50,103 bases of DNA from Promethearchaeota archaeon (GTDB lineage Archaea > Asgardarchaeota > Lokiarchaeia > Sigyniarchaeales > SOKP01). The notes below the pieces were generated by a model. That model saw only the letters and a list, made by a program, of their open reading frames with translations. It did not search any database and was not told where the DNA came from. Both the position numbers and the translations under genes were made by a program. Shown here one piece after another: positions 6,927-40,492 of this stretch (positions are counted from its first letter, which is position 1; every line of letters starts with the position of its first letter). The stretch spans positions 1 through 50,103 of the forward strand of contig JAFGOA010000105.1 in NCBI GenBank assembly GCA_016926735.1, written 5' to 3'.

Positions 6927-7031
6927 TGGGCCTGGCAGGATTCGAACCTGCGACATCGGGTTCTATAGAATATCTCTATAAAAAATCCCAGTCCGAAGCC
7001 GGGTACCCTATCCAGACTAGATTACAAGCCC
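6927..7031 (-). tRNA. tRNA-Arg(TCG) with a 30-nt intron at position 45/46 (intron 6955..6984)
   Basis: Acceptor GGGCTTG/CAGGCCC; anticodon arm CCCGG-CTTCGGA-CTGGG; T arm GCAGG-TTCGAAT-CCTGC; removing the insert restores variable loop ATGTC. Confidence 0.9.
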
Positions 7032-10739: not shown

Positions 10740-11564
10740 TTATAAAATTCCTACCATCAATAATATCATCAAAACACCGGTATAAAAAGCAATCCCGGCT
10801 AATCCTTTTTGGATAAATTGACTCTTTACTTTGTTACTAAGAACAGGGCCTATCTGGGCACCAATTATTCCCCCTATTGCGAATGTAAGAGGCCATATCC
10901 ATGAATAAATATAAGTACCGTATAGAAAATGTGTGATAATTCCAAAAAAGGATGTTGATGCCATAGCAAATTCACTTGTTGCAGCTGCTTTTTTTGCATC
11001 GAGTCCAAGTAATATCATCGATGTTGTATCAGTAGTTCCCCCTCCAAGGCCTACTAAACCTGTTATCATTCCTCCTGAAAATGAGCTAAATGAGGCAAGA
11101 TAAGGATTATTAACTCCTATTTTTGAATTATTTTCTTCTATATTTGTATAACAGGAAATTTGGTTTTGTTTAGCGGTATTTTTTAATTTGATTTCTTTTT
11201 TTTGGAAAAGAATAATGCTTAAAACTATAATAATAAATCCACAAATTCCAGCTAGAACATTTTCTAACAATATTAATGTTAAATAGCCCCCAATTAATAC
11301 TCCAGGAATATCAAAAATATTATAAAGCATTGCAAGCCTAAAATTAACTAAACCCATTTTAATATATCGAATTGAAGCGCTAATTGTAAGACATGTCATA
11401 TAGAATAATGAAATAACAATGGCGGACTCAGGAGGAAAATTAAATATAAAAATACTCGTTGGTATTATTAATATTCCTCCACCTAATCCAACAGAAGAAG
11501 AAACACATCCAATTAAAAATCCGAATACGAATGCAAGTATCAAATATTCTTCTCCTATCGGCAT
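10740..11564 (-). CDS. TauE/SafE (TSUP) sulfite exporter family permease
   Basis: Duplicated GLGGG motifs, AAATS, about 8 TMs. Confidence 0.9.
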   Translation of the reverse strand: MPIGEEYLILAFVFGFLIGCVSSSVGLGGGILIIPTSIFIFNFPPESAIVISLFYMTCLTISASIRYIKMGLVNFRLAMLYNIFDIPGVLIGGYLTLILLENVLAGICGFIIIVLSIILFQKKEIKLKNTAKQNQISCYTNIEENNSKIGVNNPYLASFSSFSGGMITGLVGLGGGTTDTTSMILLGLDAKKAAATSEFAMASTSFFGIITHFLYGTYIYSWIWPLTFAIGGIIGAQIGPVLSNKVKSQFIQKGLAGIAFYTGVLMILLMVGIL

Positions 11565-24140: not shown

Positions 24141-24779
24141 ATGGAATCTGATAAATTAAAAAAATTAACTGAATATGTTATAGAACTTGAAGTGGATGAT
24201 ATTTATGATTTAGTTTTAAAATATTTAGATGAAGGTGAAGATCCTTTTGAAATATTAAATGCATTATCTCAAGGAATGGATGAGGTAGGTAGATTATATG
24301 AAGAGAAAGAATATTATTTAACAGAATTAGTTTTAGCAGGTGAAGTAATGAAAGAAGCAATGAAAGCATTAAATCCAGCTTTAGCTGCTTCGGATAAATC
24401 AGATGATAAAATAAAAATAATATTAGCTACTGTTAAAGGAGATAACCATGATATTGGTAAAAATATTTTAGGATCACTTCTATTGAGTGCTGGTTTTGAA
24501 ATATATGATCTGGGAATGGATGTTGATGAAAATAAAATTGTAGAAAAAATAAAAGAAACAGGTGCAAAAATAATAGGATTAAGTACACTTCTAACAACCA
24601 CAATAGAAAATATTAAAGACGTACATAATGCATTAGAAAAAGCAGGTTTGAGAGACAAAGTTAAAATCATTGTTGGTGGAGCATCTTTAAATATGGACCT
24701 AGCAAAACAAGTGTGTGCTGATGATTATGGTGCCGATGCGATTGAAGGAGTGAAACAAATTAAAAAATTAATAAAATAA
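24141..24779 (+). CDS. methyltransferase cognate corrinoid protein
   Basis: Cap domain (GMDEVG..YE..EYYL.EL) plus GDNHDIGKN, LSTL, VGGA. Confidence 0.93.
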   Translation: MESDKLKKLTEYVIELEVDDIYDLVLKYLDEGEDPFEILNALSQGMDEVGRLYEEKEYYLTELVLAGEVMKEAMKALNPALAASDKSDDKIKIILATVKGDNHDIGKNILGSLLLSAGFEIYDLGMDVDENKIVEKIKETGAKIIGLSTLLTTTIENIKDVHNALEKAGLRDKVKIIVGGASLNMDLAKQVCADDYGADAIEGVKQIKKLIK

Positions 24780-25371: not shown

Positions 25372-25629
25372 TTGTCAGAACACGAAAAAATTAATGAAGA
25401 AGATTTTAAATCTGTATTAGATACAAGGGGATTATATTGTCCAGAACCGTTATTTGAAATTCGAAATTTTTCAGAAGACATTGAAATAGGAAAGTGTTTT
25501 AAGGTTTTTGCTGATGATCCTGCTGCAGAAGAGGATTTTAAAAGGTGGGCAAAAAGGACGGGACAAGAAATCTTAAGATTCGAAAAGAATGGTGAAGATC
25601 TTGTTTTTTATTTTAAAAAAAAAAAATAA
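25372..25629 (+). CDS. tusA: TusA/SirA sulfur carrier
   Basis: LDTRGLYCPEP, ADDP; RBS GGAGGT. Confidence 0.92.
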   Translation: MSEHEKINEEDFKSVLDTRGLYCPEPLFEIRNFSEDIEIGKCFKVFADDPAAEEDFKRWAKRTGQEILRFEKNGEDLVFYFKKKK

Positions 25630-25644
25630 ATTGGTGAGAATAAA

Positions 25645-26004
25645 ATGGATAAAAATTTTATATTGTATGTTCAAACCTCTGATGCTCCAGAAAGACAATA
25701 TTCTCCTTTGGTTTTAGCTCAAACTGCAAAGGCAATGGATATAAAAGCTATAGTTTATTATCTAGGTCAAGGATTAAGGATTCTTAAACCAGGAGAAGCA
25801 GAAAAAATAAAATTAGGTGATTTTCCTAGTGTTAAAGAAATGATTGATAAGACTCTAAAAGCAGGTGTAGAAATATTAGTATGTGAAGCATCAAAAAGAA
25901 TGTTAAATTGGGATAAAGTAGAATTAATTCCAGGTACTAAAATAGTTGGAGCAGCTACATTAAATGATTTAGTACTTGAAGCAGGAGGAACCATGTGGTT
26001 TTAA
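25645..26004 (+). CDS. DsrE/DsrF-like sulfur relay protein
   Basis: AGVEILVCEAS conserved Cys, GAAT. Confidence 0.88.
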   Translation: MDKNFILYVQTSDAPERQYSPLVLAQTAKAMDIKAIVYYLGQGLRILKPGEAEKIKLGDFPSVKEMIDKTLKAGVEILVCEASKRMLNWDKVELIPGTKIVGAATLNDLVLEAGGTMWF

Positions 26005-26036
26005 TTTTTATTTAAATAATAAAAAGGTGTTAAAAA

Positions 26037-27233
26037 ATGAATGAAATATATTTAGATTATCAAGCAGCAAAACCAGTAGACAAACAAGTTTTAGAATATA
26101 TGATGCCATATTTCAGTGAAATTTTTAGTAATCCCGCATCTTTACATAATTCTGGAGATATAGCAACTGAAAAACTTGAAGAATCAAGAAAGAAAATTGC
26201 TCAATTTATAAATGCACCTGAAATTTCCTCAATTATTTTCACTTCAAGTGCTACTGAATCAAATAATTTGGCAATAATAGGGGCAGCTCAAAGATATCAT
26301 AAAAAAGGAAATCATATTATAATTTCGGAGATAGAACATATTTCAATTTTTAATATTTGTAAATATCTGGAAAGAAATGGGTTTCAAATTAGCAAAGTCC
26401 CTGTAGATCAATATGGTATTGTTAAAATTGATAAATTAAAAAGGTTAATACAAGAAAACACAATACTTATTTCTATAGCAACTGCTAGTAATGAGGTAGG
26501 ATCATTACAACCAATAGAACAAATAAGTAAGATTGCTCAAGAGAAGGAGATATTATTTCATACAGATGCAATTGCTAGCGAATCAGTAATTCCTATAGAC
26601 GTTCAAACGATTCCTGTAGATTTTTTATCATTATCATCAAATGATATTTATGGTCCTAAAGGTGTTGCCGCTTTGTATATTAAAAAAGGGATAAGAGTAA
26701 ATCCAATCATATTAGGAGGAGGTCAAGAAAATGGCTTTAGATCGGGTTCACATAATCTCCATGGAATAATAGGATTTGGTAAGGCTGCAGAAATTATGAA
26801 AAAAGAGATTAATCAAGAAGCAAAAAGATTAGAATTTTTAAGAGATAAATTGATTAAAGGTATATTAAATTCTATTCCAAATTCATATTTAAATGGTCAT
26901 CCAACTAATAGATTACCAAATAATGCTCATTTTAGGTTTGATTTCATTGAAGGGGAGTCGTTAATCTTAGGATTGAAAGATCAAGGGATTGCTGCAGCTA
27001 CAGGATCAGCATGCAGTTCTAAAACTCTAGAACCCTCACATACTTTGATTTCTTGTGGATTACTTCATGAAGAAGCTCATGGTAGTTTATTAATATCATT
27101 AGGTAGATACTCAAAAGAAGAAGAAATCGATAAATTATTAGAAGGATTACCAAAAATAATAAAAAGATTAAGACTTCTATCACCATTAACTCCTCAAGAA
27201 TTAATAAAACAGTATAATGAGGTGAATAATTAA
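26037..27233 (+). CDS. iscS: IscS/NifS-like cysteine desulfurase homolog lacking the PLP Schiff-base Lys
   Basis: FTSSATESNN, EH, TGSACSS loop Cys; SSNDIYGPKG instead of SxHKxxGPKG. Confidence 0.93.
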   Translation: MNEIYLDYQAAKPVDKQVLEYMMPYFSEIFSNPASLHNSGDIATEKLEESRKKIAQFINAPEISSIIFTSSATESNNLAIIGAAQRYHKKGNHIIISEIEHISIFNICKYLERNGFQISKVPVDQYGIVKIDKLKRLIQENTILISIATASNEVGSLQPIEQISKIAQEKEILFHTDAIASESVIPIDVQTIPVDFLSLSSNDIYGPKGVAALYIKKGIRVNPIILGGGQENGFRSGSHNLHGIIGFGKAAEIMKKEINQEAKRLEFLRDKLIKGILNSIPNSYLNGHPTNRLPNNAHFRFDFIEGESLILGLKDQGIAAATGSACSSKTLEPSHTLISCGLLHEEAHGSLLISLGRYSKEEEIDKLLEGLPKIIKRLRLLSPLTPQELIKQYNEVNN

Positions 27234-27235
27234 AA

Positions 27236-28030
27236 ATGAAATCAACTCAATATTCAGAAAAAGTTTTAGATCATTTCCGAAATCCTAGGAATGTTGGGGT
27301 AATAGAAAATCCAGATGGATATGGAAAAGTTGGAAATCCCGTCTGTGGTGATCTAATGGAAATTTTCATTAGAGTTGGTAAAAACAAAAATGATGAGGAT
27401 ATTTTAACAGACATTAAATTTAGAACTTTTGGATGTGGTTCAGCTGTAGCAACATCTTCGATGATTACAGAGTTAGCAAAGGGGAAAACAGTAAGTGAAG
27501 CATACAAAATTACAAGGGGCGATGTTGCTGATGAATTAGGTGGACTTCCTCCGATAAAAATGCATTGTTCCAATCTAGCTGCAGATGCCCTTCAAGCAGC
27601 AATTAGAAATTATAGAGAAGGTACAAGACCTGATGTTGAAGTAATAACTTCGTGTCAAATAGAAATTAAAGTGATTTTAGGATTTGATGAACTTCTTGGT
27701 AAAGGTGCATATAAAAGTGTTGATAATATTCAAGAGTTTACTGATAAAAGAGTATTAGTTGTAGACAATGGAGATAATTCAATAGAATTAGCAATAAAAT
27801 TAACTGAGATTACTGGCAGAGTTATTTTAGTTACCTCTGGAAAGTTTTTACCAGGTAAAAAAGAATTGCAGGAAGCTTTAAAAAAATCTGATGTTAAAAT
27901 CCTTTATGAATCAGAATTAATAGAAGTAAAAGGTATAGAAGACGTAGAAAAAGTAATTATCCATGATTTTGATGAAGATAATAATTATGAATTATTCGTT
28001 GATAGCGTAATAAATTTAGACGATAGATAA
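27236..28030 (+). CDS. iscU: IscU/NifU-N scaffold fused to a degenerate thioredoxin-reductase NAD(P)-binding-like domain
   Basis: YSEKVLDHF.NPRN, NPVCGD, FGCGSA, LPPIKMHCS; C-terminal ~125 aa resembles the TrxR middle domain. Confidence 0.9.
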   Translation: MKSTQYSEKVLDHFRNPRNVGVIENPDGYGKVGNPVCGDLMEIFIRVGKNKNDEDILTDIKFRTFGCGSAVATSSMITELAKGKTVSEAYKITRGDVADELGGLPPIKMHCSNLAADALQAAIRNYREGTRPDVEVITSCQIEIKVILGFDELLGKGAYKSVDNIQEFTDKRVLVVDNGDNSIELAIKLTEITGRVILVTSGKFLPGKKELQEALKKSDVKILYESELIEVKGIEDVEKVIIHDFDEDNNYELFVDSVINLDDR

Positions 28031-28178
28031 TTTTTTTTTTCTTTTTGCAAATATTGCTTTTTTTAAAAATTTTGATAAAAAAAAATTTATAATTTATATA
28101 AATCTACCTTTTAAACCTTATAACGTAATAAATATTTAAATATAGGATTTTCACTTTAAAAATTAAATTTCAGAAAAA

Positions 28179-30539
28179 ATGAAAAAAATTATAATTATAG
28201 GTGGTGTAGCAGGAGGAGCTACAGCAGCAGCACGGTTGAGAAGATTAAGAGAAGATTTTGAAATAATTATTTTAGAAAGGGGGCATTTTGTTTCTTTTGC
28301 AAATTGTGGACTCCCATATTATATTGGAAAGGTCATTAAAGACCAATCTCAATTAGAATTAATGACTCCAGAGGAATTTTTTCAAAGGTTTAATATAGAT
28401 GTAAGAATTCAACATGAAGCTATTAAGATTGATAGAGAAAATAAAAATATAACAATTAAAAATAAAATAATTGGTAAAGAGTATGTTTTAGATTATGATT
28501 ATATCATTCTTTCACCAGGAGCAAGTCCAATTATCCCTAATTTTAAAGGATTAGATAGTGTACCAACATTTACATTAAGAACAATCCCAGATTCTGTCAA
28601 AATTAGAAATTATATCAAAGAAAATCAAGTAAAACATGCAACAATTATTGGAGGAGGATATATTGGTCTAGAAATGGCTGAGAATCTGCATAATCATGGT
28701 ATTAAAGTTAAGATCGTAGAAATGCTAGAACAAGTATTAGCTCCAATAGATAGGGAAATGGCTCAATTTATACATCAAGAATTGATTTTAAACGGTATTT
28801 GTTTACAATTAGGAGATGCGGTTGATTTTTTTCAATGTGAAAATCAATGTAATTATGTTATTCCCAGAAGTGGTAATAAGATAAAAACAGATATAATAAT
28901 ATTAGCAATAGGAGTAAAACCTGAAAATAATCTTGCAAAAAATACTGATCTTCAATTAGGTGAGCGTGGTCATATAATTGTAAATCATAATATGCAAACA
29001 TCAGATCCTTCTATATATGCCATTGGTGATGTAGTTCAAGTCAAAAATTTTATTGATAAAAAACCAGTAGCAATTCCTTTAGCCGGTCCTGCAAATAAGC
29101 AGGGAAGAATTGCTGCTGATAACATTGCCGGACGAAAATCAAAATATAAGGGAATTCTTGGAACATCAGTGCTAAAGATATTTGATTTAACTGTAGCATT
29201 TGTGGGATTAAATGAAAAACAAATAAAAAGTACTAATATTCAATACGATAAAGTGTATATTCATCCAAATAATCATGCAGAATATTATCCAAGAGCAATT
29301 CCTATAAGTATAAAATTACTATTTGAAATCCCAAGTGGTAAAATTTTAGGAGCCCAAGCAATTGGAGGTCCTGGAGCAGAAAAAAGAATAGATATCATTT
29401 CAACCGTTATACATTTTGGGGGAACTGTATTTGATTTAGAAGATTTGGAATTATCTTATGCACCACCTTATGGTTCTGCAAAAGATCCTGTTAATATGGT
29501 AGGATATGTAGCATCAAACGTAATTAAAGGAGACCATCCTATATGGCATTGGAATATGGAAGATGTAATTAAATCTTCGGAAAATATAATTCTCGATGTG
29601 AGAACATCTGAGGAATTTCAAGTTGGTACAATTAAAGGAGCAATAAATATTAGTGATTTAGAATTAAGAGATAGATATAAAGAAATTCCACCAAATAAAA
29701 ATATTTATGTATTTTGTGAAGTAGGTTTTAGAGGATATTTAGCTACAAAATTTCTAATGCAAAAAGGGTATAATATAAAAAATCTAACTGGAGGGTATAA
29801 ATTATATAAAACTGCAAGAGCAACTATAGAAGAAATCGCTCAAGAATGTGGTACATCTGAAGAATATATAACCCAAATGATAGAAAATAAATCTTCTATT
29901 AGTGATGATTATGTTATAATAGATGCATCTGGGCTCCCTTGTCCAGGTCCTTTAAATTCTATGATTAGAGCATTAGAAAACTTACCAAATAACAAGAAGT
30001 TAATGATATATGCAACCGATCCTGGATTTAAATCAAGTGTCGAAGCATATGTACAACTAAATAATAAAGTCAAACTTCTTTTTATAGGGAAGGAAGAAGG
30101 AAAAATGGTAGTTAAATTGGAAAAATCCGATTCATCAATCGAAGATGTTAAAAGTCCTATTCAAATTAAAAAGAAAACTCGAAAAGAATTAAGGGAAAAA
30201 AAGGCTGCACCTATATCAGAAATTAGTGTTGATGAGCTTTATAATAGATTAGACACAGAAGATTCTCCAAAAACATTAGTAGATGTACGAACTCCGCAGG
30301 AGTTTTATGCTTCAGGTGGCCATATTAAAGGAAGTCAATTACTTCCATTAGGAGATTTAATTACAAATTTAGATCAATTAGAACGATATAAAAATGATGA
30401 GGTTGTTATTATTTGTCATAGTGGATCACGTTCAATGATGGCGGCTCAACTCTTAGAAAGAACTGGATTCAAGGATATAAGAAATCTAACTGGTGGTATG
30501 TTAAATTGGCATAAAAAAGGATTCCCAACAGAAAAATAA
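28179..30539 (+). CDS. CoA-disulfide/persulfide reductase fused to rhodanese, TusA and a second rhodanese
   Basis: GGVAGG, SFANCGLPY, YAPPY; rhodanese CEVGFR; TusA DASGLPCPGP; rhodanese CHSGSRS. Confidence 0.92.
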   Translation: MKKIIIIGGVAGGATAAARLRRLREDFEIIILERGHFVSFANCGLPYYIGKVIKDQSQLELMTPEEFFQRFNIDVRIQHEAIKIDRENKNITIKNKIIGKEYVLDYDYIILSPGASPIIPNFKGLDSVPTFTLRTIPDSVKIRNYIKENQVKHATIIGGGYIGLEMAENLHNHGIKVKIVEMLEQVLAPIDREMAQFIHQELILNGICLQLGDAVDFFQCENQCNYVIPRSGNKIKTDIIILAIGVKPENNLAKNTDLQLGERGHIIVNHNMQTSDPSIYAIGDVVQVKNFIDKKPVAIPLAGPANKQGRIAADNIAGRKSKYKGILGTSVLKIFDLTVAFVGLNEKQIKSTNIQYDKVYIHPNNHAEYYPRAIPISIKLLFEIPSGKILGAQAIGGPGAEKRIDIISTVIHFGGTVFDLEDLELSYAPPYGSAKDPVNMVGYVASNVIKGDHPIWHWNMEDVIKSSENIILDVRTSEEFQVGTIKGAINISDLELRDRYKEIPPNKNIYVFCEVGFRGYLATKFLMQKGYNIKNLTGGYKLYKTARATIEEIAQECGTSEEYITQMIENKSSISDDYVIIDASGLPCPGPLNSMIRALENLPNNKKLMIYATDPGFKSSVEAYVQLNNKVKLLFIGKEEGKMVVKLEKSDSSIEDVKSPIQIKKKTRKELREKKAAPISEISVDELYNRLDTEDSPKTLVDVRTPQEFYASGGHIKGSQLLPLGDLITNLDQLERYKNDEVVIICHSGSRSMMAAQLLERTGFKDIRNLTGGMLNWHKKGFPTEK

Positions 30540-30639: not shown

Positions 30640-31029
30640 ATGAAACAAAAAGAAATTTATAAATGCAACGTATGTGGTAAAGTGATAGAGATTCTGAATC
30701 CGGGTGCTAAAAAAACCATTTGTTGTGGTCAAGAAATGGAATTACAAGAAGGCCAAACAGCAGATTGGCAAGGGGAAAAACATGTTCCTAAAATTTCAAT
30801 TGATGGAAATACTGTTACTGTAGATATTGGAATTTCAATGGGAACACCACATCCTATGACAAAAGAGCATTGGATTATGTGGATCGAGATTATATGCAAA
30901 AATGATTGTTATAAACGAAAATTCCTAAATCCGGGGGATGAACCAAAAGCAACATTTGTTGTAAAGGACACAGAAGGAATAACTGCTCGAGAATATTGTA
31001 ATCTACATGGATTGTGGATTTCAAGTTAA
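30640..31029 (+). CDS. dfx: desulfoferrodoxin (2Fe superoxide reductase)
   Basis: YKCNVCG...CCGQEM; EKHVP, HPM..EHWI, YCNLHG. Confidence 0.95.
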   Translation: MKQKEIYKCNVCGKVIEILNPGAKKTICCGQEMELQEGQTADWQGEKHVPKISIDGNTVTVDIGISMGTPHPMTKEHWIMWIEIICKNDCYKRKFLNPGDEPKATFVVKDTEGITAREYCNLHGLWISS

Positions 31030-31176
31030 AATTAGTCTTTTTTTATTTTCTTTTATTTTCTTATATTTTAAGATTCAACTAATGAAAATTATTGATATAT
31101 CTTAATGTTGAGACTTGATTAAGATTAATTTAAAATAAAATAAAATCTAGTATTTTATCAAATAAAAAAAAAGGAA

Positions 31177-31476
31177 GTGATTAAAATTACTTTAGGAATG
31201 ATACCTATAGATCTAAAAAAAATTAAAAATACTAATTTAGAAAAACAAATATTAAGAACTGGTATTTTAGCAGAATTAGATGCTATCAATTTATATGAAC
31301 AAATGGCAGATATGACTGAAAATAAGATAATTAAACAACTATTATTAGATATTGCTAAAGAAGAAAAAACTCATGTAGGAGAGTTCCAATATTTGTTATT
31401 AGATATGGATAAACAACAAAAAAATGAATTAAAAGAAGGAGAAGAAGAAGTTAAAGAGTTAATGGAAAAACAATAA
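31177..31476 (+). CDS. small ferritin-like protein (encapsulated-ferritin/rubrerythrin half type)
   Basis: ELDAINLYEQ and EEKTHVGEF diiron motifs. Confidence 0.88.
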   Translation: MIKITLGMIPIDLKKIKNTNLEKQILRTGILAELDAINLYEQMADMTENKIIKQLLLDIAKEEKTHVGEFQYLLLDMDKQQKNELKEGEEEVKELMEKQ

Positions 31477-31508
31477 ATAATTCTAAAATTCGGTTCATAA
31501 AATGTATC

Positions 31509-32057
31509 ATGATGCAAAAAAAAGCGATTATATTAGATCGGGACGGTACATTAAATGAAGATCAAGGATATATACATAAAATCGAGGATTTTAAGTTATT
31601 ACCTGGAGTGATTGAGGGTTTAAATTTAGTAAAAGATAAATTTCTATTTTTTATTATAAGCAATCAATCTGGTATAGGTCGAGGATTTTATACTGTTGAT
31701 GATTTTTGGAAATTTAATAATCATCTAATTTCTAAATTAAAACAAAATAATATAAAAATCGAAAAAACCTATTTTTGTCCTCACAAAATTGAAATTAATT
31801 GTGATTGTAGAAAACCAAAATTAAAATTTATTAAAGATATTGTATCCGAATATAAAATAAATCTTAAAGAATCGTGGGTTATAGGAGATCATCCATCTGA
31901 TGCACAACTTGGAATTAATAGTGGATCTAAATCTATTTATCTTTTAACAGGTCATGGTAAGAGTCATTTAAAGGATCTTAACAAAAAAGAGATAGAACCT
32001 ACTTTTATTGCTAAAGATTTTTTAACAGCGATGAAGTATATCCTTTCAAATTTATAA
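31509..32057 (+). CDS. gmhB: HAD IIIA phosphatase (GmhB/HisB-N-like)
   Basis: LDRDGT, SNQSG, CPH...CDCRKP, IGD..SD. Confidence 0.85.
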   Translation: MMQKKAIILDRDGTLNEDQGYIHKIEDFKLLPGVIEGLNLVKDKFLFFIISNQSGIGRGFYTVDDFWKFNNHLISKLKQNNIKIEKTYFCPHKIEINCDCRKPKLKFIKDIVSEYKINLKESWVIGDHPSDAQLGINSGSKSIYLLTGHGKSHLKDLNKKEIEPTFIAKDFLTAMKYILSNL

Positions 32058-32156
32058 TTCAAAACTCTTTTTTTATTCATATTAATAAGAATTTTATATT
32101 TATACCATCATCACTATTATAATTTAAATTACGGTATATTTGAAGGGTGTTAAAGA

Positions 32157-32615
32157 ATATTTTACAGAAAATTAAATAATGCGGATTTATGGAATAAAAT
32201 AAAGAAGATTAGAAATCTAATTCAAGCATCAAAAGAATTTAAAAAAAGAACTTGTTGGCAATGTGGTAAAGATCTTAATATATATGATTTTCTAAGTGAT
32301 AATTTAGAATATACTGCTGAAGAAATATTTATTATGTGGCAAAATAATATTCTTGAATTTCATTGTTGTGGGTGTTTTAAATCACTAAAAATAAAAGAAA
32401 TTCAGGACATAGAGAGGATAATGAAAACTCAAAGTTGTTCTTATTGTAATCGGGACATTTCTCTTTTTGAATTTAGCAATAAAAATAATTATCTTAAAAT
32501 TCACGAATTAAAAGATATATGGATAGATAAAAGGAGAAATATTTTTTGTAATCCTATCTGTCGTAGAAAATATAATAATGAATTAAAAAATAATTTTATT
32601 TTTTTAAATAAATGA
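32157..32615 (+). CDS. duplicated zinc-ribbon hypothetical protein, probable ATA start
   Basis: Frame is open 60 codons upstream of the ATG at 32334 and encodes CWQCG; two internal repeats CxxC...W....C(x)2-3C; GGTG 7 nt before the ATA. Confidence 0.7.
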   Translation: MFYRKLNNADLWNKIKKIRNLIQASKEFKKRTCWQCGKDLNIYDFLSDNLEYTAEEIFIMWQNNILEFHCCGCFKSLKIKEIQDIERIMKTQSCSYCNRDISLFEFSNKNNYLKIHELKDIWIDKRRNIFCNPICRRKYNNELKNNFIFLNK

Positions 32616-32654
32616 GCTAAAAAATAAAAAAATTCCTTGTATTTTAAAATTTAG

Positions 32655-33896
32655 TTAATAATTTTCATCCTTTTTTTTCGATGGTATATTTTTTACTTGG
32701 GAAGCAAGTTCCCTTCCAAGTTCTTCTCCTTTTTTAAGCTCTTCAGACGTAGGATGTCCTTTAAATGTAAGAGGATTTAATGTATCCCATTTCATTTTTT
32801 CAGATAATGATTCAAAATCTTTTAAAGCACCACCACTCCATCCATAAGAACCAAAGAAAGCTACCTTTTTATACCATAAATGTTTTTTTTGAAATAATTC
32901 CAAATTGTATTTCATAGGGGGAAACATTCCATATTCATAAGTTGGAGCCCCAATTACTAATCCAGCAGATTTGTATGCATCAGAAAGAACAAAAGAAGGA
33001 TCAACATTTGGAACTCTATGCACATAAACAGGGACTTTTTCCATAGCAATACCTTTTAAAACAGCATTTAGCATTATTTCAGTATTTCCATACATACTAC
33101 CCCATACAACACATATCTCAGGTTCTGCAAAATCTTTATTATAATTTGCATATCTTAAATATTTATTAATAACAGCCTTAGGATTACCCCGCCATACTAA
33201 TCCATGTGAAGGAGCAATCATTTTTATATCTACCCCCGATAAGGAGTCAATAGCTTTTAAAACCATAGGAGAAAATGTAGCTACAATGTTTGCATAATAA
33301 CGTAGCATCTCGTCTTCCCAATATTGCTTATTTATATCAGGTGTTTGATCATCAAAAAGACATCCTTTATGAACTCCAAATGACCCAAAAGCATCACTCG
33401 AAAAAAGAATTTTAGAATCTTCTTCATATGTTACCATTGTTTCTGGCCAATGGACATTTGGAATTTCCGTGAATTTTAGTTTTTTTCCCTTACCGAGATC
33501 AAGTTCATCTCCAGTTTTAACAACCTGAATATTATCCTTAATTCCAAAGAATCCCTCAACTAAGGCAGCACCTTTTTGAGTTGTTATAATTTTTACATCT
33601 GGTGCAAGTAATTTTAGCATATAAGTAAACCCCGTGTGATCAGGTTCGAGATGATTTAAAACAATATAATCAATATCTTTAAAACTAATTGAAAGGGACT
33701 CTAAATTATTTATAAGTGTTTGAGCTGCCCCACCCCACTCTCGGACTAATTCTATTAAGGCAATTTTCTCACCTTTAACAACATAAGCATTTAAGGCAAC
33801 TCCCTTTGGAATAGGCCAAATTCCCTCAAATAAATCTTCAGTATGAATATTTGCTCCAATCCAATAAATATCTTTACTTAATTCTATTATTGTTAT
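32655..33896 (-). CDS. fprA: flavodiiron protein FprA (O2/NO reductase), probable ATA start
   Basis: 92 extra in-frame codons upstream of 33620 encode IYWIG, FEGIWPIP.G, NHLEPDH; also HWPE, SDAFG, PSHG, SMYGNT, GSYGWSGG. Confidence 0.93.
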   Translation of the reverse strand: MTIIELSKDIYWIGANIHTEDLFEGIWPIPKGVALNAYVVKGEKIALIELVREWGGAAQTLINNLESLSISFKDIDYIVLNHLEPDHTGFTYMLKLLAPDVKIITTQKGAALVEGFFGIKDNIQVVKTGDELDLGKGKKLKFTEIPNVHWPETMVTYEEDSKILFSSDAFGSFGVHKGCLFDDQTPDINKQYWEDEMLRYYANIVATFSPMVLKAIDSLSGVDIKMIAPSHGLVWRGNPKAVINKYLRYANYNKDFAEPEICVVWGSMYGNTEIMLNAVLKGIAMEKVPVYVHRVPNVDPSFVLSDAYKSAGLVIGAPTYEYGMFPPMKYNLELFQKKHLWYKKVAFFGSYGWSGGALKDFESLSEKMKWDTLNPLTFKGHPTSEELKKGEELGRELASQVKNIPSKKKDENY

Positions 33897-34179
33897 TTTT
33901 AGACACCTTTAGGAAAATTATTACAGTATTTATTCTATTTATTTATTTTAAATTAAATATTTAGTGTATATGAAATATAAACTTCATTTTATTGAAAATT
34001 ATATAGTTTATAGATATTTTATATTATTAACAGGTTATGTTAATATACGAATGTATTTGAAATTTAAATTGTTTGTAATTGATAATGACTTAAATTTAGC
34101 GATTGTATAAAATATTTAAAAGATATTTCTTACTAGAAAAAATTTAAAATAAAAGAAAAAGATTTATGAATAAAATATA

Positions 34180-34317
34180 TTATTCTATTTTTTCAAACAT
34201 GTCCTTTCCTACACCACATACAGGACATAACCAAGAATCAGGTAATTTTTCAAAGGGAGTTCCCTCATCTTCTTCATCATAAATATATCCACATGCAGTG
34301 CATTCCCATTTTGCCAT
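34180..34317 (-). CDS. rubredoxin (45 aa, absent from the ORF track)
   Basis: [45 protein letters not shown]; RBS GAGGT. Confidence 0.95.
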
Positions 34318-34480
34318 ATTTTAAACCTCAATTCTTATTTTTTTTCTATTATTTAATTAGAAAAAGTTTGAGTAATTTTAAAATTATTAAGATTATATTT
34401 TATAAAACCTAATAATACTTATAACATTAATCTTATATTTTTAAAAATTTGGATTTATATTTGATTGTTAAGTTCTTTAT

Positions 34481-35836
34481 TTAATTAAGATTTTTATTTT
34501 TATATTCACTTTTAGAGGCCCCACAAACACATTTCCAATCTTTAGGTAAATCTTTGAAAAGAATTTCTTCTTTTGCTTCGTCGTATATATTTCCACATAT
34601 TTGACAAATCCATTCATATAGGTTGATTGCTTTTCTAAGTTCTTTATCTTCAACTTCCTTTTCGATATTCTTGTTAATATAAGGAATAGCATTTTTTTCT
34701 CCAAAAAGTATTGCACCTTTCAATTTATTATCTTTTAAAATAATTTTTTTATAACAATTACTTTTTTCATCGATATTTTTTAATATTTGCCAACCTGCAC
34801 CGATTAGATCTTTATCTTCAGGATCAAATATTCCAATTGAAGTTAGATCAATTCCTATAATTTTAAGTGTATTTTTAGGAATAGTCCCCTTATATTTTAC
34901 ATTTTTATTACCTAAAATAGAAGAAGCAACGATATTTGCTTGGTCAATACAAGCAGGAATTATTCCCCAAATTTGATTATTATATTCAATGCAATCGCCA
35001 ACAGCATAAATATCTTTTTGATTTGTTTCTAAATATTCATTTACAATAATTCCACGATTTGTATTTAATTCTGCTGATTTTGCTAGATCTATAGTTGGTG
35101 TAATCCCAGCTTGAATTAAAATCATATCTGCTTCAATTTGGCGTCCATCTTTAATTTTTATACCTTTAATAGAATTATTATCATTTAAAAGAATCTCCTC
35201 TGTCGTGGCGTTTAACTCAACTTTAATTCCAAGATTTTCAATTATTTCTCTTAACATTCCACCACAATCTATATCTAACTGCCGAGGTAACAATCTTGGA
35301 AAGAATTCAACAACAGTTGTATTTAAATTATAATCTTTAATTTGTTTTGCTAATTCCAATCCAAGTAATCCTCCTCCAATAATAACTACCTTTTTAATAC
35401 TATTATTTTTGATAAATTCTTGTATTTCTATAGCATTATCAATATTTCGAAGAGTGAAAACGCCATTTCCTAACATTTGATTTGCATTTTTAATAGATGG
35501 GATACTTGGCATACTTCCCGTAGCCAGAACAAGTTTATCATATGGAACTTTCTCTGTTTCACCCTTAATAATTAATTTTTTATTAATATGATCTATTTTT
35601 TCAACCTTTTTATTTAGAAAGGATTTAATATTATTTGATTTATACCAATCATCTTTAAAAATTATAAGATCATTAAAATTAAGCTTTTCATTAATTAATT
35701 CGGGAAGTTTTATCCGAGAATAGTATGGATAATTCTCTTGAGCATATATAATAATTTCTAAGTCTTTATCCAATGCACGTAAGTTCTTTGCAGTAAAGGT
35801 TCCAGCAATTCCATTCCCAATAATAACAATTCTCAT
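34481..35836 (-). CDS. NAD(P)H:rubredoxin oxidoreductase with fused C-terminal rubredoxin
   Basis: Start MRIVIIGNGIAG; GGGLLGLE; YAVGDC; tail WICQICGNIYD...LPKDWKCVCG. Confidence 0.88.
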   Translation of the reverse strand: MRIVIIGNGIAGTFTAKNLRALDKDLEIIIYAQENYPYYSRIKLPELINEKLNFNDLIIFKDDWYKSNNIKSFLNKKVEKIDHINKKLIIKGETEKVPYDKLVLATGSMPSIPSIKNANQMLGNGVFTLRNIDNAIEIQEFIKNNSIKKVVIIGGGLLGLELAKQIKDYNLNTTVVEFFPRLLPRQLDIDCGGMLREIIENLGIKVELNATTEEILLNDNNSIKGIKIKDGRQIEADMILIQAGITPTIDLAKSAELNTNRGIIVNEYLETNQKDIYAVGDCIEYNNQIWGIIPACIDQANIVASSILGNKNVKYKGTIPKNTLKIIGIDLTSIGIFDPEDKDLIGAGWQILKNIDEKSNCYKKIILKDNKLKGAILFGEKNAIPYINKNIEKEVEDKELRKAINLYEWICQICGNIYDEAKEEILFKDLPKDWKCVCGASKSEYKNKNLN

Positions 35837-36006
35837 ATTTCTATTTGGTCTTTTATAATATTTTAAGATTTTGATTATAGAAAAGAAGAGAATATAGATA
35901 AGATATATATAGTTGAAATAGGCCTTCAAATCTAATTATATCATAATTATAAAATAAACATAATTTTTGCTTTTATATTATTTATGGAAGAAAAATATGA
36001 TATTTT

Positions 36007-36016
36007 GAACATGTTC
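36007..36016. promoter_or_regulatory. candidate operator GAACATGTTC
   Basis: Perfect palindrome upstream of cooS; AACATGTTC recurs at 38047. Confidence 0.5.
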
Positions 36017-36127
36017 TGATTAATTAATATATAATCTAAAAGATTCTATTTTCTATAATTTAAAAAAAATATATTTTTTAATTCGAAATAATAAATTAAA
36101 AATTAACAAGGAATAATTGAAATAATC

Positions 36128-38032
36128 ATGGAAAAAGAAAGAATTTCTCATCATAAATCTGTACAAAAGATTTATGAAAGAATTAAAAAAGATAATATGA
36201 ACAATATTTGGGACCGTTATGAAGCACAAGGGATGGGTGGAGATCCTGATAAACGATGTCCATTTTGTTTAAAAGGTGCCAGATGTGATTTATGCTCTAA
36301 TGGTCCCTGTAGAGCAGACTCATCTATCGACAAACGGGGCGTATGTGGGATAACAGCAGATGGTATGGCTATGCGTATGATGCTTCTTAGAAATGTGATG
36401 GGAGCTTCAACATATCATTATCATACTGAAATGACTTTAAAAACCCTTAAGGCTACGATTAATGGAGAAACTCCATTTAAAATTAGTGACCCAGATAAAT
36501 TAAAAACTTTTGCGAATCGCCTTGGAATTAACACAAGTGGAAATGATAAAGAGATAGCACACAGATTATATAATTTTGTTCAAGAGGATTTTAAACGTTC
36601 TATTGATGAAATGAGCATTATAGTAGAATTGTTAGCACCAGAAGAAAGAAAAACGTTATGGAAAAAGCTAGGAATCTTTCCTGGAGGCATATATGGAGAG
36701 ATGATGTTATCTACAAGTTCCTGCTTAACAAATGTTGATGGAGATTATGTAAGTCTTGCTTTAAAGGCAATGCGTCTGGGGATTGCAATGGCATATCAAA
36801 GTCAAATAATAAATGAATATATTCAAGATATTCTATTTAATGTCCCTAAACCTCATAATTTCAGAGTTAATTTGGGAGTATTAGATCCTAACTATATTAA
36901 TATATTACCAAATGGACATGAACCATTCTTAGGTTTTGCGATGGTTCAATTAGCTCGTAAGCCAGAATGGCAGGAGAAAGCAAAATCTGTGGGAGCTAAA
37001 GGACTAAGAATTATCGCAAATATCGAAACCGGACAAGAAATGATCCAAAGATGGGAAATGGATGATGTTTTTTATGGATTTACTGGAAATTGGATCATGC
37101 AAGAAGCTGTATTAGCAAGTGGTTGTATTGATGTATTTGTTTGCGATATGAATTGTTCAATGCCTATAGATCCAAGATATTCAGAGAAATACAAATTTAA
37201 ATTAATTCCTGTTTCAGAATTAGTCTCATTTCAAGGGGTTAAAGAGCGATTGAATTATATCCCTAATAAAGCAGAAGAACAAGCTTCGAAATTATTACAA
37301 ATGGGAATTGATAATTTTAAAGAAAGACATGATAAAATAGAACCTATTATTGGATTAGATATGAATGAGGCAATGGTTGGTTTTTCTACAGAGAGTATAT
37401 TAGAAGCTTTAGGAGGAAAACTAGATCCATTATTAGATGCAATAAAAAAGGGTACTATACGAGGTGTTGCTGGTTTAGTTTCTTGTACAACATTACGAGA
37501 TTTTGGTCAAGATGTACATACAGTGAATATTGCAAAAGAATTAATTAAAAAAGATGTCTTAATACTTTCATTAGGTTGTGGTAATGGTGCTTTACAAGTC
37601 GCGGGATTATGTTCTCCAGAAGCGAAAAATTTAGCTGGACCAGGACTTAAAAATTTATGTGAAACACTTGGTGTTCCTCCTGTTTTAAGTTATGGAACGT
37701 GTACAGATACAGGACGATTGGCAGATTTAATTAATGCAATTTCGAGAGCATTAGGGGACGTTCCAATCCCAGATCTGCCTGTTATTGCAGCTGCTCCAGA
37801 ATATATGGAACAAAAAGCAACTATTGATGCAATTTTTGCTTTAGCATTTGGTCTTTATACATATGTTAATCCAATACCTACAGTTACAGGTGGTTCTGAT
37901 CTGGTTAAATTGCTTACAGTTGATTGTAAGGATATAACTGGAGGTATACTTCATGTGGAAATAGATGCAAAATTAGCTGTTGAAGCGATGTTGGATCATA
38001 TAGAGACTAATAGAAAAAAATTGGGAATTTAA
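36128..38032 (+). CDS. cooS: CooS (Ni-CODH/HCP superfamily), non-canonical CooS-V-like
   Basis: CPFC...CDLCSNGPC...VCG; GHEP, DMNC, SC, GC, GTCTD, EQKA; IET replaces the CCT ligand. Confidence 0.9.
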   Translation: MEKERISHHKSVQKIYERIKKDNMNNIWDRYEAQGMGGDPDKRCPFCLKGARCDLCSNGPCRADSSIDKRGVCGITADGMAMRMMLLRNVMGASTYHYHTEMTLKTLKATINGETPFKISDPDKLKTFANRLGINTSGNDKEIAHRLYNFVQEDFKRSIDEMSIIVELLAPEERKTLWKKLGIFPGGIYGEMMLSTSSCLTNVDGDYVSLALKAMRLGIAMAYQSQIINEYIQDILFNVPKPHNFRVNLGVLDPNYINILPNGHEPFLGFAMVQLARKPEWQEKAKSVGAKGLRIIANIETGQEMIQRWEMDDVFYGFTGNWIMQEAVLASGCIDVFVCDMNCSMPIDPRYSEKYKFKLIPVSELVSFQGVKERLNYIPNKAEEQASKLLQMGIDNFKERHDKIEPIIGLDMNEAMVGFSTESILEALGGKLDPLLDAIKKGTIRGVAGLVSCTTLRDFGQDVHTVNIAKELIKKDVLILSLGCGNGALQVAGLCSPEAKNLAGPGLKNLCETLGVPPVLSYGTCTDTGRLADLINAISRALGDVPIPDLPVIAAAPEYMEQKATIDAIFALAFGLYTYVNPIPTVTGGSDLVKLLTVDCKDITGGILHVEIDAKLAVEAMLDHIETNRKKLGI

Positions 38033-38046
38033 TTTTTTTTTTTTTT

Positions 38047-38055
38047 AACATGTTC
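38047..38055. promoter_or_regulatory. candidate operator AACATGTTC
   Basis: Second copy of the motif found upstream of cooS. Confidence 0.45.
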
Positions 38056-38121
38056 GCAGTTATGAATATAACATAATAAAGATGTTATAAAATTAAGAGT
38101 GTTATATGAGGTTTTATATAA

Positions 38122-38904
38122 ATGAGTATAGCAAATAAAAGTAAAAATATTAAAAGGAAAATAATTGAAATTAATGAGGATCTCTGCACTGGATGTGGAA
38201 ATTGTGTAGTTTCTTGTGCAGAGGGTGCACTGGAAATTATTGATGGAAAAGCTAAGGTAATAAATGATATTTTTTGCGATGGTCTTGGAGCCTGTATAGG
38301 AGAGTGCCCAGAAGGAGCTTTAGAAATAATTGAAAGAGAAGCTCCAGAATTTGATGAAAAAGCAGTAGAAGAGCATCTTGAAAACCAAAATATTATTGAA
38401 AAAAAAACAGATTTATTTGCAAATGAACCGGGAAATATTCCCTGTGGGTGTCCTGGATCTCAAACAATGAGTTTTAATAAATGTAATGATGATCAAGAGC
38501 AGATAACAGAAGGAAATATAAGCTCTCAATTAAGGAATTGGCCAATACAATTACACTTAATAAACCCTACAGCCCCATACTTTGAAAAAGCAGATGTTTT
38601 GATATCCGCAGATTGTGTTGCCTTTTCTTTAGGAGGATTTCACCCAGAATATCTTAAAGCAAAAGTGCTATCAATTGCTTGTCCAAAACTAGATCAAGCA
38701 CAAGAAAGCTATATCAATAAAATAACATCTTTAGTAGATGGTAGTAGTGTAAATACTCTAACTGTTATGACCATGGAAGTACCATGTTGTTCAGGATTAG
38801 TTCACCTTGTGAAAGAGGGTCTATCTCGAGCAAAAAGGAAGGTACCTATCAAATCAATTAAGGTTAGTTTGCAAGGTGAGATATTGCACGAAACTTGGCT
38901 TTAA
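38122..38904 (+). CDS. 2x[4Fe-4S] ferredoxin-domain protein with Cys-rich C-terminal domain
   Basis: CTGCGNCVVSC, CDGLGACIGECP, CGCPG, NWPIQL, ADC, CPKLD, MEVPCC. Confidence 0.88.
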   Translation: MSIANKSKNIKRKIIEINEDLCTGCGNCVVSCAEGALEIIDGKAKVINDIFCDGLGACIGECPEGALEIIEREAPEFDEKAVEEHLENQNIIEKKTDLFANEPGNIPCGCPGSQTMSFNKCNDDQEQITEGNISSQLRNWPIQLHLINPTAPYFEKADVLISADCVAFSLGGFHPEYLKAKVLSIACPKLDQAQESYINKITSLVDGSSVNTLTVMTMEVPCCSGLVHLVKEGLSRAKRKVPIKSIKVSLQGEILHETWL

Positions 38905-39051
38905 TGACCAAATAATTTTTTCAATAATATTAAAATATAAAAAATAATTATTTTATCAACTTATTTTTAAGAAATTACTAAAATCAAGCTTAAAACAAGA
39001 AAAATGATTAAATTTTAGATATAAATTTTATTATCATTTTTATATTATGGG

Positions 39052-39687
39052 TTATAATATTGAAATCGAGGATAATAACAAATCCAAAGAGAATTCGGTA
39101 AATACCTTCTCACTCATTGATATAAATTCTGTAAAAGATTCTCCGGATTGTGAAAGTTGTTGGAAAAATCCAGTTATTAAAAAAATAAGTGTATAGGTGG
39201 TTTTTTTAGGATCGATATTTGGGCGGATAGTTCCATCTTTTTGACCTATTTTAATTAATTCTGATAATTGGTTAAACATAAAAGTATCAAATTTACGGAA
39301 TTCTTTATAACTAATACTCTTTCCTCTATTCCTTTTTACATAACCAATATAAGTCATTAATTTGAAAATTTTTGGATTATTTTTATAAAAATCATAATAG
39401 GCTAAACATACATGATATATTTTATTAAATCCTGTATCACCCTTACTTAATGCTTTTTGACAATAATTATAAAGATTTTTAAATCCTTCTAAAGTAACAG
39501 CAAAATAGATATCTTCTTTACTTGGAAAATATTGATAGAGTGTTCTTTTTGTAAATTCAGACTCCTTAGCAATTTCATTCATGGTAACTTCATTATAATT
39601 TTTTTCTGAAAATAATTTTTCAGCTGCTAGAATCATCTCATTTTTTCTTACTTTTTTTTCTCGTTCTCTTCGTGTTAATTTTGACAT
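39052..39687 (-). CDS. TetR/AcrR family regulator
   Basis: AAEKLF...TMNEIAKESEFTKRTLYQYFPSKEDI. Confidence 0.93.
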   Translation of the reverse strand: MSKLTRREREKKVRKNEMILAAEKLFSEKNYNEVTMNEIAKESEFTKRTLYQYFPSKEDIYFAVTLEGFKNLYNYCQKALSKGDTGFNKIYHVCLAYYDFYKNNPKIFKLMTYIGYVKRNRGKSISYKEFRKFDTFMFNQLSELIKIGQKDGTIRPNIDPKKTTYTLIFLITGFFQQLSQSGESFTEFISMSEKVFTEFSLDLLLSSISIL

Positions 39688-39740
39688 TTTTCCTCATAAA
39701 ATATAATGATAGAAATGTTTATATACTTTGCGTTGCTTTT

Positions 39741-39757
39741 GTATACTATGGGTATAC
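39741..39757. promoter_or_regulatory. candidate TetR operator
   Basis: GTATAC-TATGG-GTATAC between divergent tetR and the flavoprotein gene. Confidence 0.5.
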
Positions 39758-39781
39758 TTAACACAAAAAGGTGAAAAAAAT

Positions 39782-40492
39782 ATGAAAATTGTTGGTATTA
39801 TCAGTAGTCCAAATAAATATGGGAACACAGCAACATTAGTAAGAACTGCTCTAAAAGCAGCTGAAGAAGAAGGATTGAAAACTGAAGAGATTTTCCTTGA
39901 TAAATATAATATAAAATATTGTAGAGGATGTCTTAGTTGTATGTCAACAGGAAAATGTATAATCTCTGATGATGATTTTAAGAAATTATATAATATTATA
40001 TTGAATGCAGATGGAGTAATTTTGGGGGCTCCAAATTATGGATATTCGATGAATGCAATTATGAGAACTTTTTTAGAAAGATTTGGTCTTTTTGAATTCA
40101 TGACCTCTAATTCCTTTGGAGGTAAATATGTTGCTGGGATTGCAACTTCAGGAGGGAAAAAAGGCGTTATTAAAGTTGCAAAATCGACAATAAACATAGC
40201 TAAATCAGCAATGTTTAAAAGAGGATTTGTTTCAGGATATTTGGGTGTAGCAACAAGAGGAGAACATATCAAAAATAATAAGAAATCTTTATATAAAGCA
40301 ATGAAACTGGGATTAAAGATTGCTTTAGATATCAAAGGAAAACAAAAATACAAATATCAAAATATTTCAGGAAGATTCATGAACAAAATACTGATAAAAC
40401 CTATGTTCAAAAAAGTTATATTAAAAAATAAAGAGAGAAATATGAAAGCAATTTATGAAAACTTGAAAGAAAGGGGTTTAATTGAAGCATAA
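39782..40492 (+). CDS. iron-sulfur flavoprotein / NADPH-dependent FMN reductase family
   Basis: MKIVGIISSP..GNT; CRGCLSC....C; RBS AAGGTG before 39782. Confidence 0.88.
   Translation: MKIVGIISSPNKYGNTATLVRTALKAAEEEGLKTEEIFLDKYNIKYCRGCLSCMSTGKCIISDDDFKKLYNIILNADGVILGAPNYGYSMNAIMRTFLERFGLFEFMTSNSFGGKYVAGIATSGGKKGVIKVAKSTINIAKSAMFKRGFVSGYLGVATRGEHIKNNKKSLYKAMKLGLKIALDIKGKQKYKYQNISGRFMNKILIKPMFKKVILKNKERNMKAIYENLKERGLIEA

Follow-up and report, generated by a model that had tools for sequence, protein, structure and literature searches.

The window analyzed here is a stretch of 50,103 nucleotides from a Promethearchaeota archaeon (GenBank assembly GCA_016926735.1, contig JAFGOA010000105.1), which is contig C144 in our numbering of an assembly of 3.88 Mb that is 99% complete. 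It contains a cassette of four genes, tusA, dsrE, iscS and iscU, followed by a gene for a fusion of CoADR, rhodanese, TusA and rhodanese domains (CoADR-Rhd-TusA-Rhd; Table 1). All five genes are encoded on the + strand; 15 nt separate tusA from dsrE, 32 nt dsrE from iscS and 2 nt iscS from iscU, and the fusion gene begins 148 nt beyond iscU. This order and spacing had been noted in an earlier prediction made from the DNA letters alone (hereafter the original prediction) and were borne out by the open reading frames (ORFs); the three gaps within the four-gene cassette imply that its genes are translated together. The start codon of tusA is TTG, with GGAGG 7 nt upstream. Because the iscS product lacks the lysine that normally forms the Schiff base with pyridoxal phosphate (PLP), it is referred to below as IscS*, and proteins with and without that lysine as Lys-type and Lys-less, respectively.

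No genes for HscAB, Fdx or IscA were seen beside iscS*-iscU within the window, and a comparison of the regions upstream of tusA, the CoADR gene and the desulfoferrodoxin gene (dfx) for shared operator motifs yielded just AT-rich repeats of low identity. Sequence words of the window are all but absent from two RNA runs of the source study, which provide no evidence either way.

IscS* is a predicted pseudo-desulfurase

The residue of IscS* at the Schiff-base position is Asp203, within the motif SSNDIYGPKG(V), and the Cys loop is retained as ATGSACSSK, with Cys326; both features, from which the original prediction started, are read directly in the sequence. The best solved relative is Archaeoglobus fulgidus IscS2 (4eb5_A, E 2.3e-135), in which the motif SSNDIYGPKGV is identical, and in 4r5f, an engineered A. 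fulgidus variant (D199K), lysine occupies the place equivalent to Asp203. IscS* has the class-V aminotransferase fold (PF00266, 255.1 bits, positions 1-371) and scores 473.2 with the NifS equivalog TIGR03402, below the cut-off of 530.75, a threshold that the genome's Lys-type paralogue clears with 541.7. With TIGR02006 its score is 402.5, against a cut-off of 643.2.

The loss of the lysine is accompanied by other replacements. We compared IscS* and its relatives at 41 columns whose conservation reaches 93% or more in 131 Lys-type proteins found among the best 150 representatives of a search of 1.84 billion proteins, a set in which lysine is present in 131/131 by definition. Among 127 Lys-less relatives, 35 of the 41 columns are kept and six are replaced (N151S, Q180A, K203D, K208R, T238S and R352L). 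The frequencies of Q at column 180 and R at column 352 in the Lys-type representatives are 0.97 and 0.99, respectively, and that of D at 203 in the Lys-less clade is 0.84. The clade keeps H101, D177 and Cys326, the last at a frequency of 1.0 in the 127 sequences and likewise invariant in a 38-sequence alignment. The columns of Q180 and R352 match Q183 and R354 of Escherichia coli IscS, which we take to contact O3' of PLP and the substrate carboxylate; if so, with K203D, three catalytic positions would have been lost together. That IscS* still carries out PLP chemistry on cysteine was judged unlikely, since three conserved active-site columns are replaced together.

The match to 4eb5, the score below the NifS cut-off and the replaced catalytic columns all agree with the original view of a pseudo-desulfurase, and we conclude that IscS* is, by prediction, a non-catalytic pseudo-enzyme of the A. 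fulgidus IscS2 type. The A. fulgidus protein is described as having no desulfurase activity and binding pyridoxamine phosphate, and is a proposed donor of a Cys ligand, the route of its sulfur being stated as open (PMC8918507). By analogy, Cys326 of IscS* is a putative ligand lent to the nascent [2Fe-2S] cluster on IscU.

The acidic residue at position 203 is conserved. It was D in 24 and E in one of 25 orthologues drawn from 30 relatives, D in 74 and E in six of 80 Asgard loci (contigs from one genome per species, partly from the same genomes as the 30 relatives), and D at 13/13 loci from four other Asgard families. In addition, contigs of two runs from other studies span the codon (X2 record 12, 26415-26954; X3 record 19, 26562-27016), and no difference is listed for either at 26643-26645, 57 lesser differences falling outside that listing. 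A lysine at 26643, which the original prediction had named as a finding that would speak against it, was thus not encountered, and the possibility that the Asp codon is a sequencing error, or the gene a pseudogene, is ruled out by D or E in all orthologues together with the contigs of the other studies.

In a tree of the 150 representatives and local sequences, the protein of the window falls in a clade made up of Lys-less proteins alone (D, E, A, S or P at the site; 13 tips, support 0.987), which grows to 19 tips with a support of 0.94 once metagenome sequences are added. One member, carrying Ser at the site, bears the name Odinarchaeum. Other losses of the lysine (T, S, Q, M/L, G or R) are dispersed elsewhere in the tree. 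One relative encodes, besides a D-type protein, an IscS paralogue with Thr at the Schiff-base site and the Cys loop kept (FAAPTFYGPKG; L209, G027:C1:2026952-2028040).

tusA is linked specifically to Lys-less iscS

Where the DNA upstream extends for 800 nt or more, tusA directly precedes the Lys-less gene at 77 of 77 Asgard loci, with dsrE between tusA and iscS in 39 of them, and iscU follows iscS at 73/73 loci. In the other Asgard families, tusA adjoins iscS at 10 of 13 D-type loci. For comparison, we gathered 80 metagenome loci with generic IscS patterns and counted those IscS-like ORFs that had at least 400 nt of upstream DNA. TusA accompanied seven of eight Lys-less ORFs as against 0 of 69 Lys-type ORFs; it lay upstream of five, all D-type, and downstream of two, both with a K-to-Q replacement (Q-type). 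DsrE was likewise found at 0/69 of the Lys-type metagenome ORFs. A search of every ORF of the 80 metagenome loci with profile hidden Markov models returned seven TusA and five DsrE-family matches, all at Lys-less loci and confirmed by Pfam. The linkage of tusA is therefore specific to Lys-less IscS. Moreover, the Q-type loci form a separate clade (support 0.93) in which the gene order is iscS(Q)-iscU-(zinc ribbon)-DrsE_2-tusA; since the D/E/S/A/P and K-to-Q clades both have TusA and a DsrE-family gene in differing orders, the link arose at least twice. The original prediction had proposed an examination of co-occurrence, which was clear for tusA in both samples and divided for dsrE, a gene present in the cassette at about half of the Asgard loci and wanting at the remainder.

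The cysteines expected of carriers are invariant in both proteins, Cys23 of TusA in 95/95 distinct cassette sequences and Cys80 of DsrE in 53/53. TusA is a PF01206 member with the CPxP cysteine, its best solved relatives being 1pav and E. coli TusA (3lvj_C), although it falls under the cut-off of the E. coli-type equivalog NF001423 (40.2 < 78). DsrE belongs to PF02635/PF13686, a family that also includes TusD, and among solved structures it comes closest to 3mc3_A (E 1.5e-10), where the Cys lines up; its score with the DsrE2 equivalog is 31.2, below the cut-off of 210. A second dsrE-tusA pair of the same genome lies on another contig (C14; L245:3976-4668, - strand), divergent from a gene for a LysR-type regulator and without an IscS gene nearby.

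The Lys-less module is present in 84 of 201 sampled Asgard genomes. No prior description of tusA or dsrE beside a Lys-less IscS was found in the literature covered, where such a link is also unmentioned for A. fulgidus IscS2; the original A. fulgidus papers and their supplements lie outside that literature.

IscU carries a remnant of a flavoprotein

The scaffold domain of IscU has the ligands C37, D39, C67, H110 and C111, invariant in 41 sequences, and scores 191.1 with TIGR03419, above the cut-off of 187.9. Its C-terminal extension matches the NAD(P)H domain of thioredoxin reductase (TrxR) type in 2zbw_A (E 1.3e-7), with degenerate motifs (GGGDSA of 2zbw is DNGDNS here, and LIHRR is LVTSG). 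The extension has one Cys, no CxxC and no FAD domain, and with TIGR01292 it scores 47.9 against a cut-off of 343. A working reductase is ruled out by the missing FAD domain and the degenerate motif. The extension occurs at 73/73 Asgard loci with enough downstream DNA and at 9 of the 13 loci of other families, and is missing from three D-type metagenome loci. The IscU chain of the A. fulgidus complex (4eb5_C, 153 aa) matches profile positions 6-137 only and differs from that of the window in having no TrxR-like extension.

A possible origin of the extension is provided by family f23, where the cassette consists of tusA, iscS (Asp), an ORF of 136 aa and a gene in which iscU is fused to a complete TrxR/FNR-like Pyr_redox_2 flavoprotein, 448 aa in length, with FAD and NAD(P)H motifs intact (Table 1). 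The full-length fusion is present in 6/6 f23 genomes and in no other genome of the 201-genome sample. The extension of the window aligns to residues 269-373 of one such fusion (P0533) with 37% identity (E 2e-18), and we conclude that it is, as judged from this alignment, a dead remnant of a flavoprotein NAD(P)H domain. No earlier description of an IscU-TrxR fusion was found in the literature. Three iscU genes are interrupted by an intein (Intein_splicing, with a LAGLIDADG_3 homing endonuclease; L236:7177-8760, L130:2066-3616 and L135:6174-7832), one of them beside D-type and two beside Lys-type IscS.

CoADR-Rhd-TusA-Rhd is an addition of one family

Residues 2-546 of the fusion protein match 3icr_A (E 8e-185), and the match of residues 1-547 to 3nta, 8a56 and A. 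fulgidus 6pfz is full-length. The protein scores above the cut-off of NF010037 (397.5 > 394) and below that of TIGR03385 (528.2 < 578.8). Across 48 distinct orthologues, Cys43, Cys513, Cys588 and Cys746 are each conserved in 46-48, Cys43 and Cys513 in all 48. It thus shares residues 1-547, with the redox Cys43 and the rhodanese Cys513, with the CoADR-RHD/Npsr/CoAPR persulfide reductases (3ICR, 3NTA, 8A56 and 6PFZ), but goes beyond them with residues 548-786, which make up an additional TusA domain and a second rhodanese domain, a form found just in the Asgard family of the window. CoADR-RHD relatives are reductases that turn CoA persulfide, or other persulfides, into thiol and H2S (PMC9405070).

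The original prediction had made this gene part of the sulfur-feeding operon. The gene does lie within 6 kb downstream on the same strand at 42 of 55 Asgard loci, with a gap to iscU of 111-3196 nt; the longer gaps contain a divergent gene for an HdrD-like CCG protein and an OsmC-like gene. However, in the 201-genome phylum sample, full-length relatives are confined to the family of the window, f1 (30 of 40 genomes), and the four-domain form is found in 0/43 genomes of f12, so that it cannot be a general sulfur feeder. The f1 genera g8, g3 and g4 likewise have the D-type IscS and no CoADR fusion gene, and with f12 they rule out CoADR as an obligatory part. In f10, 16 of 21 genomes encode a shorter CoADR-Rhd, with no Lys-less IscS at the threshold used. 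Presence of the CoADR gene showed no positive association with dsrE (24 loci with and three without it among dsrE-negative loci, 17 and 10, respectively, among dsrE-positive ones). The HdrD-like orthologue of this genome is on another contig (C67), and a different CCG-domain protein is encoded in the window at 45064-46047.

A possible persulfide relay to IscS*-IscU

Gene linkage and the known roles of these families suggest a persulfide relay from TusA, with or without DsrE, to Cys326 of IscS* and on to IscU, to which we give about an even chance of being correct. The complex of IscS* and IscU would be the assembly site, as in A. fulgidus. Since IscS* would be unable to make persulfide from cysteine, sulfane sulfur is proposed to come via TusA, arriving as a Cys-persulfide on Cys23, and Cys80 of DsrE could act as an optional upstream carrier. 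The persulfide would then be passed to Cys326 of IscS* and/or to the cysteines of IscU and be reduced there to sulfide. Electrons for the step from S0 to S2- could come from a flavoprotein, and the IscU-flavoprotein fusion of f23 fits this need; in the family of the window the CoADR fusion might perhaps take that part, as a protein that could plausibly load or reduce TusA and DsrE persulfides at the expense of NAD(P)H. In the E. coli ISC system, electrons are passed to IscS/IscU by ferredoxin, NADPH and FNR (PMC4547094). The sulfur could ultimately derive from polysulfide or thiosulfate, entering through the rhodanese domains, or from cysteine, through a Lys-type paralogue. We infer the direction of sulfur flow, the sulfur donor and the source of electrons alike from gene linkage and known family roles.

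With regard to direction, the IscS-TusA-TusBCD relay of E. coli (3LVJ) resembles the window in its combination of IscS, TusA and DsrE-family proteins and in the passage of persulfide between conserved cysteines. However, the E. coli IscS is the catalytic donor and its sulfur goes to tRNA, whereas IscS* is predicted to be dead and is encoded together with IscU, so that the flow would have to start elsewhere and would probably run towards IscS*/IscU. A wider form of the proposal, in which a Lys-less IscS would always become the terminal acceptor of such a relay (Rhd/CoADR to DsrE to TusA to IscS* to IscU), with a flavoprotein, joined to IscU or encoded beside it, giving the two electrons that take S0 to the sulfide of the cluster, and the whole being a distinct, cysteine-independent mode of Fe-S biogenesis evolved at least twice, seems to us rather doubtful.

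Several points weigh against the relay. In E. coli, sulfur flows in reverse, from IscS to TusA, and the binding sites of TusA and IscU on IscS are in competition (PMC11302665). Three of the 13 D-type loci of other Asgard families (L231, L236 and L238) have no adjacent TusA, and neither has a Lys-less metagenome locus with a K-to-L replacement (L200); dsrE is facultative, being found at just 39/77 loci; and f12, which has a Lys-less IscS in 35 of its 43 genomes, has the four-domain CoADR in none of them. The loci compared are interrelated, so that the counts overstate their independence. Lys-type desulfurases coexist with IscS* in most genomes checked, and sulfur may therefore still come from cysteine. 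Finally, the authors of the A. fulgidus work hypothesized free sulfide as the sulfur source (PMC8918507), and SMS works with sulfide (PMC12192291), which means that a relay is not strictly required.

These last two observations would be accommodated if free sulfide were the source, and TusA and DsrE served other targets, reactive-sulfur buffering or regulation of the scaffold, merely sharing the operon. The clearing of persulfides by CoADR-RHD enzymes (PMC9405070) and the second dsrE-tusA pair, apart from any IscS, would also fit such an arrangement. It sits less well with a linkage that is specific to Lys-less IscS and has arisen twice independently, with gene gaps that imply co-translation and with carrier cysteines that are invariant, and we regard it as quite unlikely.

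Lys-type desulfurases in the same genome

The original prediction had called the system cysteine-independent and had it draw on environmental polysulfide. The second idea is not supported and is pure inference. The first is not established, because genes for a Lys-type NifS/IscS, a SufS-like protein, CysK and CysE are found alongside the cassette in this genome. The Lys-type gene (motif SAHKLYGPKG) adjoins NadA on contig C172 (L001:1034-9465), where the same 9 kb hold the SufS-like protein (448.6 bits, below the cut-off of 475.1), a short IscU of 126 aa, CysK, CysE and a sulfide-dependent thiazole synthase; one SufB-family gene and two further IscU-like genes lie elsewhere in the genome, which also encodes SmsB. 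Lys-type IscS is present in four of five further genomes checked (G031, G032, G026 and G027), two of which are labelled chromosomes, and most relatives have both paralogues.

A cysteine-dependent relay, in which a Lys-type NifS/IscS or the SufS-like protein makes persulfide from cysteine for TusA, alone or together with DsrE, to carry to IscS*-IscU as a second scaffold, could therefore be supplied by enzymes of the genome itself, including an IscS that passes the NifS cut-off, and has a precedent in E. coli, where IscS loads TusA (PMC2854127). We nonetheless consider it unlikely, given that TusA was beside none of the 69 Lys-type IscS of the metagenome sample and that the Lys-less gene may occur by itself: one genome (G011, 96% complete) yielded neither a Lys-type IscS nor a SufS, and in two more (G004 and G024, both 91% complete) the D-type protein is the sole match at E <= 1e-60.

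Genomic neighborhood of the cassette

At 53 of 73 loci a gene for a stand-alone corrinoid protein precedes tusA in the same orientation, its gap to tusA being 592 nt here and ~230 nt in the closest relatives. Downstream, dfx is present at 29 of 55 Asgard loci, and in the window it opens an island of oxygen and reactive-species defence genes (30640-40492) that also includes genes for a Fer4 protein, a TetR protein and an FMN reductase (Table 1). The conserved N-terminal part of the flavodiiron protein in this island may use another start codon. The tRNA of the window probably holds an intron, because it spans 105 nt against a model of 71 positions.

The dfx, rubrerythrin-like, flavodiiron and rubredoxin genes make a role in oxidative or reactive-sulfur stress possible. 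The cassette would then be a stress module that repairs Fe-S clusters, or stores them in protected form, when the cell is stressed by oxygen or reactive sulfur, and not one for housekeeping assembly. The rubredoxin-reductase fusion and the Prismane-family protein downstream, the frequency of dfx, the OsmC-like and HdrD-like genes between iscU and the CoADR gene in relatives and the other Fe-S systems of the genome are all in keeping with it, but the stress-gene neighborhood was not seen at the 13 loci of other Asgard families, and we see only a slim chance that this is what the cassette is for. A stress role is in any case compatible with the persulfide relay and does not exclude it.

Table 1. 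Features of the window and of loci in relatives that are referred to in the text.
Feature	Position	Strand	Remarks
tusA	25372-25629	+	sulfur carrier, 85 aa; Pfam TusA 61.5 bits (cut-off 28.6)
TusA Cys23	25438-25440	+	codon; CPEP motif
dsrE-family gene	25645-26004	+	119 aa; Pfam DsrE 48.3 bits, DrsE_2 49.1 bits
DsrE Cys80	25882-25884	+	codon; sole Cys, in VCEAS
iscS* (misS-like)	26037-27233	+	398 aa; Lys-less class-V fold, Cys loop kept; Aminotran_5 255 bits
IscS* Asp203	26643-26645	+	GAT; at PLP Schiff-base Lys position
IscS* Cys326	27012-27014	+	codon; GSACSS loop
iscU	27236-28030	+	264 aa
IscU scaffold domain	27236-27640	+	residues 1-135; NifU_N 155.9 bits
IscU C-terminal extension	27641-28030	+	residues 136-264; predicted degenerate remnant of TrxR/FNR-type NAD(P)H domain
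CoADR-Rhd-TusA-Rhd	28179-30539	+	786 aa; Pyr_redox_2, Pyr_redox_dim, 2 Rhodanese, TusA
Desulfoferrodoxin (dfx)	30640-31029	+	Pfam/NCBIfam
EncFtn/rubrerythrin-like gene	31177-31476	+	Pfam/NCBIfam
Corrinoid (B12-binding) protein	24141-24779	+	Pfam/NCBIfam
Flavodiiron protein	32655-33908	-	417 open codons; first ATG/GTG/TTG at codon 97
Rubredoxin	34180-34320	-	
Rubredoxin-reductase-rubredoxin fusion	34481-35929	-	
Prismane-family protein	36128-38032		
TauE/SafE-family sulfite-exporter-like membrane protein	10740-11564	-	14 kb upstream of cassette
tRNA	6927-7031	-	sole Rfam match in window
HdrD-like gene, relative	L061:8025-9158	-	Fer4 and 2 CCG domains
OsmC-like gene, relative	L061:9271-9825	+	
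IscU-flavoprotein fusion, f23	L230:7903-9249	+	also at L239-L244

Discussion

The window is best explained as encoding the form that a Lys-less MIS/ISC module takes in Asgard archaea (Promethearchaeota), an assignment drawn from its sequence likenesses. The closest known counterpart is the IscS2-IscU pair of A. fulgidus (4EB5, 4EB7 and 4HVK; D199K in 4R5F), which shares with the window the Asp in place of Lys, the Cys loop and the adjacent IscU partner. MIS, the minimal ISC system of MisS and MisU, is a two-gene core typical of anaerobic archaea (PMC13066941, PMC12192291), and the window likewise has a core of one IscS-like and one IscU-like gene. However, MIS is described with a cysteine desulfurase and without a carrier, whereas the window has lost the desulfurase residues and adds sulfur-carrier genes and a reductase-derived domain. 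IscS1 of Methanosarcina acetivorans also has no catalytic Lys and possibly works like A. fulgidus IscS (PMC7585200), as IscS* might; it is uncharacterized, and the word TusA has 0 occurrences in that paper.

How Fe-S clusters are supplied with sulfur in the absence of an active cysteine desulfurase is a stated open question (PMC8918507, PMC13066941), one that covers A. fulgidus IscS and many anaerobic archaea. TusA, often together with a DsrE-family protein, provides a concrete candidate, and does so in two lineages. The linkage of tusA specifically to Lys-less IscS is new, and the IscU-flavoprotein fusion with its degenerate remnant, both previously unreported, points to a built-in electron supply. 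Were the relay to prove universal among Lys-less proteins, it would answer where IscS-IscU of the A. fulgidus type obtains its sulfur. Since the module is widespread in Asgard archaea, it bears on the Fe-S machinery used by the archaeal relatives of eukaryotes.

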